Positions 8,544-15,949 of a stretch of 64,000 bases of DNA are shown here, one piece after another. The position numbers and the translations under genes are program-made. This DNA comes from an uncultured Hyphomonas sp. (GTDB lineage Bacteria > Pseudomonadota > Alphaproteobacteria > Caulobacterales > Hyphomonadaceae). The stretch spans positions 3,353,961 through 3,417,960 of the forward strand of contig OY782759.1 in assembly GCA_963678195.1 (NCBI GenBank), read 5' to 3'. The notes under the pieces are model-generated. The model was not told the origin of the DNA, ran no database searches, and was given only the letters and a program-made list of their open reading frames with translations. Each line of letters begins with the position of its first letter. Within the stretch, counting starts at the first letter, position 1.

Positions 8544-9410
8544 TCAATTCGGTCGGAGGTGCACGGCAGAGGCATCAACGCTCTCAAGAAACAGGTCGAA
8601 GAACCGCACATATGCAACGACGCCCAGCTTAATGATGTCCGACCAGAATTCAGGAGGAACAGTGTCGATCGGCCGCTGGCCGGTTCTGGAATCCCGCGGA
8701 CCCATCCTCGGATTTATTGCTCCCCTCATGAGACTATAAACATGCATCGCTGTAATAATGTCCCACGGCTTGAGCCACATAGAATCCAGATATTGCGCAT
8801 CTGTACATAGGTGGAAATTCACCAAGGGGGGAAGGGGAAGCCCAAACTTTACAATGGCTCCTTTTCCGCCCGAATCCACTCCGAAAAACCCGGTGATACC
8901 TGTATTCGGCATTTCCTTCACAAGGATCGAAGGCATGGGCGGCACTCTTTTGGAAAGATGTCGGAACCCATTACGCTCGCCGACCTTTCGGAGATAAGCC
9001 CGCACGTCGGAATTCCTGACAAGCAATTCGGAATCACTCGCCGGGATAAGAGCAAGTTCCTGTATCTTTTGCGCTTCCAGTACTCCGTAATATTGTCTGC
9101 CTTCTTCCTCAGGCGGCATACTGTGCAGACGTTTTGTCAATATCTCATTGAGTCGATTTGGATAGTTTGCGAGCAAAGCTGTATCCGGCGTGACGGCATA
9201 TCTGAGTCTAAAATAAGCCCTAGCATCAGATTCATCGAGATATTCGCGAGCTGTAAACGCCCCGTCGCACAGGACACTCGCCAGTTCCGCATGAACGTCG
9301 ATCAATTCGAAGCCCTCGGTGCGAAGGCTCTTGCGAAGCTCCGCCGCCGCCTCCCAGTAACGAAGATCTACTCCGTGAGTAAGCATTATCCATTCAACCT
9401 TGAGCGGCAA
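8544..9410 (-). CDS. low-GC orphan hypothetical protein (about 280-288 aa)
   Basis: Uninterrupted ORF in a visibly AT-richer segment; alternative ATG start at 9386. No family recognised. Confidence 0.75.
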   Translation of the reverse strand: MPLKVEWIMLTHGVDLRYWEAAAELRKSLRTEGFELIDVHAELASVLCDGAFTAREYLDESDARAYFRLRYAVTPDTALLANYPNRLNEILTKRLHSMPPEEEGRQYYGVLEAQKIQELALIPASDSELLVRNSDVRAYLRKVGERNGFRHLSKRVPPMPSILVKEMPNTGITGFFGVDSGGKGAIVKFGLPLPPLVNFHLCTDAQYLDSMWLKPWDIITAMHVYSLMRGAINPRMGPRDSRTGQRPIDTVPPEFWSDIIKLGVVAYVRFFDLFLESVDASAVHLRPN

Positions 9411-10565: not shown

Positions 10566-10655
10566 TTTCCACTTGAACCCGGCCGCATCCGGTTCTATCT
10601 CCCCCTTCCCTCGTATTGCCGCGGCTGCTGACCCCGACAATATGAGGAAAAGACC

Positions 10656-11192
10656 ATGTCACACCCCGCAAGCCGGGCCGCACGACGCGTGGAGGCCCGC
10701 AAACATGATGGCGACCGCAAGGTCGAGCCGACCCATCGCGGCTTCGAACAGAAAAGCTGGAAACTGATCTACCGGCGAGCGAACAAGCTTGGCCGCGCGC
10801 GCCAGATCGGCAAGATATGGCCGCACCGGGAATGGGAGAAACTGATGGCCGATGCAGAACCGGTAAAGGTCCTGTTCGTCTGCAGCCACAACAAATGGCG
10901 CAGTCCGACGGGCGAAGCCATGTTCTCCCGCGCCCCCGGCGTGGCCACCCGCTCGGCCGGCACCGCGCACAATGCCCGCCACAGGATCACCGTGGCGGAC
11001 ATCCGCTGGGCCGACATGATCCTCGTCATGGAGGACAAGCACGAACAGCGCCTGCGCGCCGATTTCCGCCAGGAAGTCGCCTACAAGCCCGTGCACATGC
11101 TGGATATTCCGGACGACTACCAGTTCATGGAAGACGAACTGATCGAGCTGCTGCGCGTGAAGTGCGAACCGCTGATCTTCGGGGATGCGTAA
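10656..11192 (+). CDS. low-molecular-weight protein-tyrosine-phosphatase family protein with a basic N-terminal extension
   Basis: VLFVCSHNKWRS (CX5R), SAGT, WADMILVME, LDIPDDY. Confidence 0.85.
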   Translation: MSHPASRAARRVEARKHDGDRKVEPTHRGFEQKSWKLIYRRANKLGRARQIGKIWPHREWEKLMADAEPVKVLFVCSHNKWRSPTGEAMFSRAPGVATRSAGTAHNARHRITVADIRWADMILVMEDKHEQRLRADFRQEVAYKPVHMLDIPDDYQFMEDELIELLRVKCEPLIFGDA

Positions 11193-11235
11193 ACACGGCT
11201 GGCCACGGGCGGCCCTTGGCCCTATATACCGCGCC

Positions 11236-11608
11236 AGACCAGACGGCCGGGCAGCCGCTGGCATGCTGGTAACGGCATGCTGGAGGAAAGTCCGGGCTCC
11301 AGGGATACAGGGCGACGGCTAACGGCCGCCCGGCGCAAGCCGAGGGAAAGTGCCACAGAAAGCAAACCGCCTCCCCCCGGGGAGGTAAGGGTGAAAGGGT
11401 GGGGTAAGAGCCCACCGCGGGCCTGGCGACAGGACCGGCACGGTAAACCCCGCCCGGAGCAAGACCGAATAGGGGGCGCGCATGGGCTGTATCCCGCCTG
11501 CGCCCCGGGTGTGTCGCGTGAGGTGCCTGGCAACAGGCATCCCAGAGGAATGGCTGCCAGACCTGAGCAATCAGGCGAACAGAACCCGGCTTACAGGCCG
11601 TCTGGTCT
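11236..11608 (+). ncRNA. rnpB: RNase P RNA (bacterial type A)
   Basis: GAGGAAAGTCCGGGCTCC, GAAAGTGCCACAGAAA and AGAACCCGGCTTACAG conserved blocks; terminal P1 helix AGACCAGACGGCC/GGCCGTCTGGTCT. Confidence 0.98.
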
Positions 11609-11691
11609 TTTCTTCCGGTCGCGCAAGGCGCGGCAATTCGATCAAGGATCGAATGGAGGAAGAAAAGGCCTGCCACGCAAGCAAAGGCAAA

Positions 11692-12852
11692 TCAGTCTCC
11701 GGCGCCCTTGGTCAGGCTGGGCGGATAGTAGCGGTCCCTGCCATAGGTGCTCATCTCGTCCGACAGGGGAAACTGGTTCGGAGCAGTGATAACCAGTTCA
11801 TAGTTATAATCGTAGGCTTTCTCCAAAGCCTGGCGCGCGACAATGGCTTCAGTGGCCTCCTGGGGAAACACGAAGCAGAAATCTGCCGGGCATTCTGCAT
11901 CTTCCAGCAGGGTTGCATCAAAGCGCAGCGTGCCGGCCCGCCAGTCATTCCGGTCCCAGTCCCACTCCCGCTCATCCTGAACCAGCAATTGCGCCCCCAG
12001 CGTCTTCGGGCCCCAATCGGAGGCATCCTTGCTGATCAGGATCACAAGCCGCCCATCATCCATGACGCCTTCGGCTTCGTTGATTTCGATGGCCAACCAG
12101 TCAGCATCCCTGATTTTCGGATTGAAGCGATGGCCCAGCCGGGCAGGAAACGCCGTGCCGCTGCCATCGGTCCTGACCGCCCGGTAATAGCCGTGCGCCT
12201 CGGGATCGCTCTGATAGGCGAAGCCCTTCTCGCCAAGCCGCATCTGCCACAGGCCGTCATTGATGGGATTTTTCATGGCTTCCCAGGCAACATTTGCGTC
12301 ATATCCCTCGGCCTGAAGCTCGGCGATCAGTTGCTGGCCGACGGCTTCATAGTTCTGGCCGTAGAGGGACTGCACGAAGGTCAGCAACTGGTCGCCCGCC
12401 CGTTTCCGCCCAGACCTGTCCATCTGCCGCTGCTGCGACTGTTGCGCAGCGATCAGCGCCTTCAGGTAGTTGCGGATATACCCCCCGCGCACAGCCCTGA
12501 TATCTGCATCCCCGGCATCGCAGGGCCTGTCTGCCACAGCCAGCCTTGCTGTTTCCCGCCGCTGCTCCACCATGTTCACCATCTTTTCGAGTTCGATCTC
12601 GAAATAGGACTGGCCAGCTGCCGCTGAGACCGCCTTTCCCTCCTTGGTCAGATCCTTGGCATTGTTGATACCGCGGTCGATTTCCCTGATCTCGAAATAG
12701 TTCAGCATGTGGCATCGCTGCTCCAACTGCTCAGCCCGCAGCCAGGTATCCAGCACGCCATAGCTGTCGAGCGGTTCCTCCCGCGCGGCGGCCGGTGATG
12801 GCGCCAAAAGGCAAAGGACGAGAACACTCAGACAAGATACGATCAAACGCAT
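11692..12852 (-). CDS. secreted hypothetical protein, paralog 1
   Basis: Signal peptide ending AAA|REEP; GGAG before ATG 12852; colinear with 13013..14158. Confidence 0.85.
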   Translation of the reverse strand: MRLIVSCLSVLVLCLLAPSPAAAREEPLDSYGVLDTWLRAEQLEQRCHMLNYFEIREIDRGINNAKDLTKEGKAVSAAAGQSYFEIELEKMVNMVEQRRETARLAVADRPCDAGDADIRAVRGGYIRNYLKALIAAQQSQQRQMDRSGRKRAGDQLLTFVQSLYGQNYEAVGQQLIAELQAEGYDANVAWEAMKNPINDGLWQMRLGEKGFAYQSDPEAHGYYRAVRTDGSGTAFPARLGHRFNPKIRDADWLAIEINEAEGVMDDGRLVILISKDASDWGPKTLGAQLLVQDEREWDWDRNDWRAGTLRFDATLLEDAECPADFCFVFPQEATEAIVARQALEKAYDYNYELVITAPNQFPLSDEMSTYGRDRYYPPSLTKGAGD

Positions 12853-13012
12853 GTAGCGGCTCCATATTCCGCGGCAGGCGAGCCTAACCACATTCCCGGG
12901 GGACACAATATCCGTTTATCCCGCACCTGATTCCGCGTCGCGGCCGTATTTGATCGAGGATTCAATACAGGAAAAGAAGGGGTTTTCAGACTGCTGCTGC
13001 AAGCCACGCCGA

Positions 13013-14158
13013 TTAGTTCAGATCCATCGGATGGAACCTTCTCCGCGTACTCGACTCTTTTGTCTCCGGCAGCGGAAACTGTTCCGGCTCGGCAATCACC
13101 AATTCGAATTTGTAATCAGCCGCATTGCCCGTGCCCTGACGTTCACGGACGGCATCGGAGGCTTCCTGCGGGAAGGTAAAACAGAAATCAGCCGGACAGT
13201 CCGGCCCCGTCTCGACGTCGGCCATGAAGCTCAGCGACCTGCTGCGCCAATCCGGCCTGGACCATGCTTGGACGTCCGCATCCTTCTGCACGAACAATTG
13301 CGCCTGCAGCGCTTGTTTTCCGGCCTCAGCCGTATCCATGCTGACAAGTGTCACCAGCCGTCCGTCATCCGCAATGCCGTCGACTCGGTTGACGCTGACG
13401 GGCCAGCCTTCCGAATTCATGAAGCTTGGATCATCGCGTTCGGACAGTTTTGCCGGGAAGCGCGCGCCACTGCTATCCAGTTTCACGGCCTCATACGTCG
13501 CGTTCCCATTCGGCAGGGGATGAAAGCCATACCCCTTTTCACCCAGTCTGAGCTGCCACTGCAGATCATTGACGGTGTCATCCAGTCCGTCCCACGCCTT
13601 ATCGGCATCAAATCCTTCGGCCTGGAGTTCTGCGTTCACTTCCTGAACCAGGGGGTCAAACTTTGCGCCATACATCCCCTTGGAAAAACTAAAAAGGCTT
13701 TGTGCGGCGTATTTGCGCCCCGCTGTATCCTTCTGCAAATCCGGAGAGCTCTGAGATGCGAGCAGCGATTTTACGTACTCGCGGATGTAAAATATCCGTA
13801 GCACTTTTACGTCGTCACCCTGGCTGCACGCCTGGTTTGCCACGGCCTCCCTGGCTGTCGCCCGATGGGCTTTGACCATGTCGTCCCTCTTCGCGACAAC
13901 CTCGTCGCGAAACGCTGTCCCGGCCATGACCTTCACGTCATTGCCTTCCGGGGTTACTGACGCAGAAGCACTAATCCCGCGCTTGACCCGCTGCACTTCG
14001 AAATAGTTCAGCACACGGCAGCGTTCATTGAACTGTTCGGCGCGCAGCCAGGTATCCAGTACGGCATAGGATTCCAACGGTTCCTCACGCGCCAGGGAGG
14101 GCTGGGCCAGCGCCGTCCAGAAGAACAGACCGCCGAGAAGCGAAAGCGCAAGACGCAT
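13013..14158 (-). CDS. secreted hypothetical protein, paralog 2
   Basis: Signal peptide ending SLA|REEP; GGAG before ATG 14158; shares many blocks with paralog 1. Confidence 0.85.
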   Translation of the reverse strand: MRLALSLLGGLFFWTALAQPSLAREEPLESYAVLDTWLRAEQFNERCRVLNYFEVQRVKRGISASASVTPEGNDVKVMAGTAFRDEVVAKRDDMVKAHRATAREAVANQACSQGDDVKVLRIFYIREYVKSLLASQSSPDLQKDTAGRKYAAQSLFSFSKGMYGAKFDPLVQEVNAELQAEGFDADKAWDGLDDTVNDLQWQLRLGEKGYGFHPLPNGNATYEAVKLDSSGARFPAKLSERDDPSFMNSEGWPVSVNRVDGIADDGRLVTLVSMDTAEAGKQALQAQLFVQKDADVQAWSRPDWRSRSLSFMADVETGPDCPADFCFTFPQEASDAVRERQGTGNAADYKFELVIAEPEQFPLPETKESSTRRRFHPMDLN

Positions 14159-14276
14159 GAGGATGACTCCGATTGTTGTGCCCGGCACCTTATTCCTATT
14201 CGTACGGGACTCAATGCGCTACTTATCCTTGCATTGTCAGGCCGCAACCTGTCGCCACCATTGAACCGGCCGCAAA

Positions 14277-14328
14277 CCCGTTCGCGGGAAAGGTGGGGCC
14301 CGCGTCCAAAGGGCGTGGGCGGTGAGGG
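14277..14328 (-). repeat. single half-element of the CCCTC...GAGGG palindromic family
   Basis: Minus strand CCCTCACCGCCCAC...GGGCCCCACCTTTCCCGCG aligns with the left half of 52657-52761. Confidence 0.7.
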
Positions 14329-14346
14329 CCAGGAAAAGGTGCTGGC

Positions 14347-14748
14347 CTATGTCTTCCGACGCCGCATGAATTTCAGGCCGGACCAGTCTGAATCCACGGC
14401 GCAGACTTTCACATCGACCCAGCCGGTGGGCAGGATGACCTCCCGCAGCATGTCTTCGGTCAGGTCCCGGAACAGGGCAGAGCTTTTCTTCGGCCACGAC
14501 ACCCACAGCATGCCGCCGGGCGAGACCTGCGCCAGCGCCGGGGCAATTCCCGCCTCCAGATCTGCACGGACCGGACAGAACAGGTGGACGAGGTCCACCG
14601 GCCCTTTTTCAACAAAATCAATCCCTTGCGCCCCATCGACCAGTGCCTGATACGGCCCCGGCGGATTAAGGGGCAGGCAGGACATGCCGGGCTTCAGGCC
14701 CAGTTTCTGCCAGAGCGGCTTGCCGGAATAGCCCGCAGGTTTTGCCAT
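14347..14748 (-). CDS. DUF3052 family protein
   Basis: GYSGKPLWQKLGLK, LWVSWPKKSS, GWVDVKVCAVDSDWSGLKF. Confidence 0.85.
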   Translation of the reverse strand: MAKPAGYSGKPLWQKLGLKPGMSCLPLNPPGPYQALVDGAQGIDFVEKGPVDLVHLFCPVRADLEAGIAPALAQVSPGGMLWVSWPKKSSALFRDLTEDMLREVILPTGWVDVKVCAVDSDWSGLKFMRRRKT

Positions 14749-14852
14749 CTCCCGTCCCCTTTCGATACAGCTCCGACGTCATTCTGGCACATGCTGTGCA
14801 CAAGATCCGGCAGAAATTGCGTTGGACCCGGTCAAAGGAGACGGAATCCATC

Positions 14853-15566
14853 ATGCTGAAACGTATATTGCTGAGCGCCCTGCTGCTGGCCATGCCGTCC
14901 TGTGCCAATCGCGAAATCCCCAAGGGTCCGCTGCCGGATCTGCCGGGCAAAGTCCTGATCGTGGGCGATTCCATCTCGCTCGGCCTCGGTGCCATGGGGC
15001 CGGACAAAGCCTGCCCGCTGACACCGGAATATACGTCCGAGCGCCACTCCTATGGGGTCCAGGTCGCCGATGCGCTGGGCGTCGACTATGAGATGTTCGC
15101 CTGGGCGGGCATTGGCCTGGTGCACAATTACGGGGACAACCAGACCAATACGATGTCGATGCGCCTGACGCGGGCCAGAGAACTGGAACGCCTCGATGCA
15201 ACCGGCCCGGTGCAACTCGTGCTGGTCAACATCGGCACCCACGACTTCTTCCACAACGATCCGACGGACCGGTTCGTCCCGGCCATGGAAGACCTGCTGG
15301 CCCTGATGACCATGCGCTATCCGGATGCCACCATCTATGCCCTGACCGGCCCCATGCTGGGGGGCACGGACAAAGCCCTCCATGGCCAGGCCGTGGAAAC
15401 GGCGGTGAATTCCGTGAACAAGGACTATGACGCACACATCCGCTATCTCGCCCTGAATGGCGGCGACCCATCCATTGCCTATGGCTGCCAGTGGCATCCG
15501 TCCGTACCGGCACATGACCATATGGCGGAAATGATCCTGGACGATCTGCGCAGCCAGAACCGATAG
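14853..15566 (+). CDS. SGNH/GDSL hydrolase, probable lipoprotein
   Basis: IVGDSISLG block I, AWAGIG block II, VNIGTHD block III, CQWHPS block V; N-terminal LAMPSC. Confidence 0.85.
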   Translation: MLKRILLSALLLAMPSCANREIPKGPLPDLPGKVLIVGDSISLGLGAMGPDKACPLTPEYTSERHSYGVQVADALGVDYEMFAWAGIGLVHNYGDNQTNTMSMRLTRARELERLDATGPVQLVLVNIGTHDFFHNDPTDRFVPAMEDLLALMTMRYPDATIYALTGPMLGGTDKALHGQAVETAVNSVNKDYDAHIRYLALNGGDPSIAYGCQWHPSVPAHDHMAEMILDDLRSQNR

Positions 15567-15949
15567 TCCGGCAGCTGGCAAACTTACGTACCGCTCGTGC
15601 TCTCCACACCTGGAGATTCAAACACACGGTGTGTGCCGCTCATCGGAAACTGTGCTAGAATCACTCTAAAGAAGGCGGCTGGACGGCGCTTCCACCGGGG
15701 GTGATCCCGATCCGGTAGACGATTTTTATGCACGCAAAAATGGTAATTCTGAGCAGACTTTTCGGAGAACGAAGGCGTACGAAATCAAGGCAAATCAGCA
15801 CAATGTTTCAGTCTTCACGTGTCTTCACGCTGCGCGGCTGAGCGAACCGCGTTGACACTTGCAACCGCAATACACTAGTCGCAGCTACTGAATTCGGATA
15901 TTCACTCTGATAGAAGCCGTTTTAACGGTAAAGAGAGGCAGGCCCCTTC

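Follow-up and report, generated by a model that had tools for sequence, protein, structure and literature searches.

Two orphan exported proteins beside rnpB in an uncultured Hyphomonas: a tandem pair most likely stacked as alleles

How did two related genes for secreted proteins come to lie side by side at the 3′ end of rnpB, the gene for the RNase P RNA, and what might their products do? The question is raised by a 64,000-nucleotide stretch of the genome of an uncultured Hyphomonas sp. (contig OY782759.1; the whole stretch is called the window, and the genome G000). An original prediction, made from the letters alone, had picked out here a tandem pair of paralogous secreted proteins that converges on rnpB. 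Both genes, A and B, were recovered with exact coordinates, and 82 bp separate the stop codon of A from the convergent rnpB 3′ end.

11239..11609, plus strand: rnpB (RNase P RNA, class A), matching Rfam RF00010 over its full length at 312.5 bits; conserved left anchor of the slot described below.
11692..12852, minus strand: gene A, 386 aa, ATG at 12852 with GGAG 7 nt upstream.
13013..14158, minus strand: gene B, 381 aa, ATG at 14158 with GGAG 7 nt upstream; its orthologue in Hyphomonas adhaerens MHS-3 is HAD_01500 (WP_035568933.1), 94-95% identical in amino acids.

We consider it probable, taking the whole explanation together, that A and B belong to an orphan family, that they were stacked as alleles by cassette exchange, and that they act as envelope binding proteins whose partners differ between alleles.

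The paralogy of A and B is far beyond chance (44% identity by BLASTP over 382 residues with 2 gaps, E 9e-119), and both reading frames are intact. Each protein starts with Met-Arg, followed by a hydrophobic core and an A-x-A site (MRLIVSCLSVLVLCLLAPSPAAA in A and MRLALSLLGGLFFWTALAQPSLA in B, with predicted cleavage before REE), after which both share REEPL[D/E]SY.VLDTWLRAEQ. Across the family alignment (34 members) every protein has a signal-peptide-type N terminus, as read from the sequence by eye and not by a predictor, and two distant members carry lipoboxes (LAAC and FSAC). Invariance is confined to the four Cys noticed in the original prediction (C47, C111, C321 and C326, in A numbering) and G262. 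Near-invariant columns comprise M1 (the start codon), G165, G267, W304, R305, P322, F329, E352 and R372, and no Ser, His, Asp or Lys is invariant. The proteins thus have the traits of a Sec-exported, signal-peptidase-I-processed envelope protein, namely a basic N-terminal residue, a hydrophobic core, an A-x-A site and conserved paired Cys. Export and disulfide stabilization of the product are indicated by the signal peptides, by the lipoboxes of the two distant members and by the four invariant Cys. The proposal of a candidate novel periplasmic or surface family stands. An AlphaFold2 model of A (pLDDT 91.3, pTM 0.86; pLDDT 93.5 in a second model) divides it as follows, and in a model of the C-terminal domain one long helix accompanies about 10 strands.

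Protein A, residues 1-26: signal peptide.
Protein A, residues ~30-208: helical domain.
Protein A, residues ~211-356: beta-rich domain.

That no family would be recognized was also borne out, by sequence and by fold. A and B matched no Pfam or NCBIfam family at E <= 10 and nothing in PADLOC, and had a single PHROGs match at E 0.22. Across the 34 members, Pfam gave scattered matches with E >= 0.009, none of them common to more than three members, and a sequence-profile search of the PDB found no relative. Foldseek returned no match at E <= 0.001, either for the full model against PDB and BFVD or for the C-domain model against PDB. Its weak top matches were PloI4, CRABP-II, PH domains and the Neisseria hypothetical protein 5ueb. 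The C-terminal domain likewise combines strands with a helix, as do lipocalin/calycin-like and PH-like barrel-with-helix domains, a likeness that gives no evidence of membership; these beta-barrel, PH and lipocalin matches were insignificant and were dismissed (E >= 0.056, probability <= 0.38, TM score <= 0.44, no sequence signal). The C..LNYFE block had suggested the lysozyme-inhibitor LprI-like helical domain (DUF1311), but membership was rejected since none of the 34 members matched it in Pfam at E <= 1.

The family is as narrow as it is isolated. Clustering of 5.8 billion proteins at 90% identity leaves it with 12 clusters, and it has 28 representatives in a set of 1.84 billion at 50%. Carriers make up 14 of the 201 Hyphomonadaceae genomes, spread over 4 of 18 genera, and 6 of the 80 species of the genus Hyphomonas; no member occurs in 400 genomes of other Alphaproteobacteria from 308 genera. 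A and B, both intact, belong to an orphan family of very few members, restricted to the Hyphomonadaceae. Its named members are annotated as "hypothetical protein" and come from H. adhaerens MHS-3, Hyphomonas sp., Ponticaulis sp. and Hyphomonadaceae metagenome-assembled genomes (MAGs), one bearing an automatic "Lipoprotein" label. HAD_01500 and these relatives all have about 380 residues, a signal peptide and four Cys, and are uncharacterized; a literature search covering H. adhaerens and islands linked to rnpB turned up nothing relevant to the gene. Distribution and copy number, by which the prediction could be checked, set G000 apart: it is the only one of the 201 family genomes and of the 80 species of the genus to hold two copies, unlike HAD_01500 and the other named relatives, and the other 13 carriers have one each.

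How the pair arose can be read from the place that these genes occupy in relatives. The genus has five other carriers, and in each of them the homologue adjoins rnpB; HAD_01500 sits there in the same slot as gene B. The parts of the slot in G000, other than the genes listed above, are these.

11605..11670, plus strand: mod1, the structured 3′ trailer of rnpB, with a 12-bp outer stem around two hairpins in a three-way junction.
11668..11682, minus strand: terminator-like hairpin of A, GCTTGC-GTG-GCAGGC then CTTTTCTTCC, found by a consensus scan and specific to the A cassette.
12853..12932, minus strand: upstream region of A, motif GGATAA..TTGTGTCCC..GTTAGGCT, within the A cassette.
12933..13012, no strand assigned: mod2, a second and decayed version of mod1, downstream of gene B.
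14159..14276, minus strand: upstream region of B, motif GGATAA..TTGAGTCCC, part of the B cassette.
14277..14360, no strand assigned: right junction of the slot, with a short dispersed repeat resembling repetitive extragenic palindromes (REP).
14347..14748, minus strand: gene for a 133-aa protein with no Pfam match, the first conserved right-side gene in G200-type genomes and absent from B-only genomes.

Homology with every close relative ends at 11670-11688, just past mod1; the slot starts about 60-80 bp after rnpB. Homology resumes at 14360 with G200-type genomes and at 12933 with genomes that carry only B, and with the latter it ends on the right at 14277-14320. Three states of the slot were found in carriers. 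Two genomes, G005 (H. adhaerens MHS-3) and G023, read rnpB, mod1, a 28-nt hairpin, mod2 and B. Three others, G200, G158 and G149, read rnpB, mod1, a DUF1428 gene and a third allele, C, which is followed by an AAA_28 gene in G149 at least and by the 133-aa gene in G200 and G158; the 133-aa gene was not detected in G149. G000 itself reads rnpB, mod1, A, mod2 and B. The Hyphomonas family members occupy a single slot, whose left boundary is formed by rnpB and its trailer and whose right boundary is the 133-aa gene or a GDSL lipase gene. The metagenome alleles P0007, P0008 and P0012 lie in the same neighborhood of genes for a low-molecular-weight phosphatase (LMWP), a GDSL lipase and an aldolase. 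Allele C is 51% identical to A and 38% to B, and the classes A, B, C, P0007 type and P0012 type share 38-60% amino acid identity. Even closely related strains differ in which of these diverged alleles they carry, or have other cargo or none. In more distant species rnpB stands directly beside a TetR gene, the slot being empty, or is followed by other cargo.

The cargo of the slot in other Hyphomonas (L024-L027 and L051) includes a 348-aa DUF4380 lipoprotein, DUF1428, an AAA_28 ATPase and a conserved 130-aa open reading frame (ORF) without a Pfam match. The DUF1428 protein of the G200-type genomes has 115 aa, and its gene lies directly downstream of the C-type allele.

In the alignment with B-only genomes, A appears as a discrete insertion. 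G000 has 1262 nt (11671-12932) where they have 28 nt, and this 1.26-kb cassette consists of gene A, its own terminator-like hairpin and 80 bp of upstream DNA. A contig from a public sequencing run matches 11584-12992 with 0 differences across both junctions of the cassette, which excludes faulty assembly as the source of the arrangement. The B stretch (12933-14277) is 95.9% identical in nucleotides to a B-only locus, L030. Synonymous divergence (dS) of B from G005 and G023 is 0.074-0.078, against 0.27-0.98 in the flanking genes; values so far below those of the flanks argue that B was recently shared with the H. adhaerens lineage. The flanks of G000 are nearest to those of G200 (93-97% nucleotide identity, dS 0.14-0.33), where the slot holds allele C, whose dS from A is saturated (1.67).

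Among the carriers of C, dS of the gene equals that of the flanks and the ratio of nonsynonymous to synonymous divergence (dN/dS) is 0.14-0.23; pairwise dN/dS of B against G005 and G023 is 0.35-0.37. These ratios cover classes B and C, A having no close orthologue, and exclude the GDSL row of L030 and the aldolase row of L031 as frame artefacts. The agreement of gene and flanks in class C, together with the low dN/dS, indicates that the allele classes are old, stable and under purifying selection, and that it is their distribution that has been reshuffled. Positive selection as a driver of fast evolution within an allele class was rejected, given dN/dS of 0.14-0.37.

On this evidence the pair is most likely a case of allele stacking and not of duplication in situ. 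It would have been assembled by homologous recombination that exchanged cassettes while anchored on the conserved flanks. A G200-like backbone would have lost its C-type allele and DUF1428 gene, and G000 would have gained the A cassette as well as a B cassette that it came to share recently with the H. adhaerens lineage. Each cassette has its own candidate promoter and terminator.

The original prediction had instead read the pair as an old duplication of which both copies were retained. Retention of two intact copies holds, but the duplication fits poorly with G000 as the sole two-copy genome, with A as a discrete insertion and with B as a recently exchanged gene. In its fullest form this alternative supposes an ancient tandem duplication beside rnpB, after which most lineages lost copies and G000 alone kept the pair. 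The tree gives it some room: A groups with the metagenome proteins P0002 and P0003 (support 91/83), its closest relatives at 59-62% identity, this group joins the B clade with moderate support (91/71), and an exclusive clade of A and B is not rejected by the approximately unbiased (AU) test (p 0.25). A and B also have in common the REEPL[DE]SY mature N terminus and a GGATAA..TTGnnTCCC upstream motif, and over codons 16-60 their DNA sequences are slightly more alike, too small a rise to establish a gene-conversion tract, which we had considered. Against this, only 1 of the 14 carriers has two copies, and the B-only genomes keep an undisturbed series of mod1, hairpin and mod2 without any remnant of A. 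The dS of B to the H. adhaerens-type genomes is 4-12 times below that of the flanks, and the genomes nearest in their flanks, G200 and G158, hold a third allele with DUF1428. The closest relatives of A, moreover, lie in another context, and the organisms that carry them have housekeeping proteins only about 71% identical. A duplication somewhere in the history of the family is possible; one that took place in situ and was kept only in G000 matches synteny and dS poorly, and we regard it as unlikely.

That other context is a position beside an AraC regulator gene, following a gene for a secreted protein of 221-231 aa. This smaller protein (L043 5324-6019 and L044 1980-2645) contains Cys, has no Pfam match, overlaps the start of the homologue by 4-18 bp and is divergent from the AraC gene. 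It may be a lineage-specific partner, and it is absent from G000. Outside Hyphomonas, the homologue otherwise takes a fixed place between a DUF418 gene and purL (DUF418-X-purL) and looks vertically inherited in three genera. It lies just upstream of purL in L035, L036, L038, L039 and L040, and downstream of the DUF418 membrane protein in three of them. There it ranks among the most diverged genes of its neighborhood, with 42-47% identity between congeners against 65-93% for most neighbors; two or three neighbors are equally diverged (38-60%). A 367-aa neighbor in Ponticaulis was considered as a further paralogue and rejected (hhalign probability 0.2).

Strains with different states of the slot co-occur in one public sample: runs X1-X4, compared with window positions 10600-15600, contain two Hyphomonas strains. 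The minority strain is identical to the window, with A and B, and the other is a B-only H. adhaerens-type strain about 5-7 times more abundant, its flanks 3-5% diverged.

The locus recalls two kinds of variable region. In islets at stable RNA genes (tRNA or tmRNA, with an integrase and att repeats) variable DNA begins, as here, right after the stable RNA gene; here, moreover, mod2 forms a partial copy of the trailer 1.3 kb away, and the A cassette lies between the two related modules. Unlike such islets, the slot has no integrase or recombinase: none lies in or beside it in G000, where it holds only A, B and short intergenic DNA, and the slots of relatives with DUF1428, AAA_28, DUF4380 or the 130-aa ORF have no integrase either. 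Unlike an empty att site, too, the slot of B-only genomes holds both modules in tandem without an insert, and the resemblance between the two copies is loose. An integrase-driven islet is a poorer fit than homologous recombination in the conserved flanks. The other likeness is to hypervariable accessory loci that swap alleles of surface or envelope proteins. These likewise have conserved flanks, deep alleles exchanged between near-identical backbones and synonymous divergence that is discordant between cassette and flanks, and the REP-like repeat at the right junction is a further likeness. The difference is that the cargo here is one orphan family in several allelic forms, two of which are stacked in G000.

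The anatomy of the intergenic DNA bears on whether A and B are expressed as one unit. An alignment of upstream regions shows the motif GGATAA..TTGnnTCCC..(G/A)nTA to be common to A, B and the P0012 allele. It looks like a Caulobacter-type sigma-70 promoter, and we infer from this likeness that it is a candidate promoter. The 160-bp spacer between A and B, together with this shared motif, suggests two transcription units. The prediction had floated a heterodimer or a specificity-diversified pair. An obligate complex of A and B would agree with two adjacent genes on the same strand whose products are similar in size and presumably in fold. It sits badly with the 13 other carriers, all single-copy, with the different histories of the two cassettes, and with the 160 bp between the genes, which contain a decayed terminator-like module and A's own upstream region and so probably separate two transcription units. 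We therefore find the heterodimer very improbable, whereas diversified specificity remains compatible with the data.

The trailer that anchors the slot is itself a strongly folded element. Its hairpins are GUCGCGC-AAG-GCGCGGC and AUUCGAUC-AAG-GAUCGAAU, and the minimum free energy (MFE) of the whole, -39.2 kcal/mol, corresponds to a z score of -5.05, with 0 of 200 shuffles as good. In relatives both sides of hairpin 1 have changed (GCGC/GCGC, GTGC/GCAC and GACGC/GCGTC). This trailer, mod1, may be an element for rnpB 3′ processing or termination conserved in Hyphomonas. The fold of mod2 is unstable (z +0.09 to +1.2). In B-only genomes mod2 follows mod1 directly, according to the alignment to L030, and a different hairpin of 28 nt occupies the place of A's terminator-like hairpin. 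Within the 3.67-Mb genome the palindrome ATTYGATCRAGGATYSAAT has just two occurrences, at 11636 and 12948; a reading of mod1 and mod2 as a genome-wide REP family was rejected, both being unique to the locus. On the far side of B, the palindromic half-element of the prediction exists as a short dispersed repeat at ~14286-14330, where the repeat search detected no local inverted repeat. This GC-rich repeat (..GGGCCCGCGTCCAAAGGGCGTGGGCGG..; window 14277-14330) has at least five partial copies elsewhere in the genome and falls exactly on the right boundary of the B cassette.

What the proteins might do is the weakest step of the explanation, and we advance it with modest confidence. The product would be cleaved by signal peptidase I and oxidized to two disulfides, assumed to join C47 with C111 and C321 with C326, the latter being the CPADFC pair. 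The lack of any invariant residue of a catalytic type argues for binding rather than catalysis, and a patchy accessory distribution of deep alleles exchanged between co-occurring strains is what would be expected of envelope proteins that face variable biotic partners. From these features of sequence and distribution, the proteins may act in the periplasm or cell envelope as non-enzymatic binding proteins with allele-specific partners. The partner would vary by strain (phage components, incoming toxins and ligands of a surface or polymer kind are candidates), and carrying two alleles would widen the range recognized.

A more specific version of this functional part would make them orphan immunity-type genes, that is, periplasmic immunity or inhibitor proteins directed against an envelope-targeting toxin of competitors (a bacteriocin or a secreted effector), stacked as orphan immunity genes are elsewhere. 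Exported, disulfide-bonded products without conserved catalytic residues would suit such a role. So would the patchy accessory distribution, the deep allele classes swapped between close strains, and the co-occurrence of a two-allele strain with a one-allele strain. Yet no toxin or toxin-delivery gene stands beside family members in the roughly 20 contexts examined, PADLOC and Pfam gave no match, and the DUF418-X-purL position in three other genera is a fixed housekeeping one that looks vertical. Size is a further difficulty: mature A and B have about 360 residues in two domains, and typical immunity proteins are much smaller. We judge immunity quite unlikely. The boldest reading, to which we would lend tentative credence as an unlikely extension, is a new fold and family for strain-specific envelope recognition, such as phage blocking or toxin neutralizing, in which balancing selection would maintain the allele classes, rnpB-anchored shuffling would distribute them and stacking would widen specificity.

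Several points weigh against the preferred account of stacked alleles of an envelope binding protein. The function is read from anatomy and population pattern, and no conserved functional neighbor was found, contexts differing by lineage. As to origin, the AU result given above allows an exclusive clade of A and B, and their common mature N terminus and upstream motif would also agree with shared ancestry or with gene conversion. The analysis turned up no donor for the A cassette, and with no recombinase or integrase in the slot the mechanism of exchange is one that we infer. Finally, the Logan contigs drop the B variant of the rarer strain, so the B of G000 was not independently seen again in the runs.

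If the fold is really new, a family with a confident model but no assignment would join the envelope proteins of marine stalked bacteria. On the reading preferred here, the locus also offers a clean natural example of allele swapping and stacking among co-occurring strains, with a stable RNA gene as anchor and without a recombinase. This makes it tractable for asking what selects for deeply diverged alleles of accessory envelope proteins in free-living marine bacteria. Its value at present lies mainly in a well-delimited orphan family, flagged as a target for structural and genetic work.

Variation is seen on the other side of rnpB as well. Between its LMWP gene and rnpB, on the upstream side, G200 carries a 650-bp insertion (L032 7136-7750) that the window lacks (at 11210/11221) and whose product is a 204-aa DUF3574 protein bearing a signal-peptide-like segment. 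Farther upstream, a 288-aa orphan gene (8544-9410, minus strand) is 100% identical in G200 and absent from the other four close relatives, as would fit recent swappable cargo.

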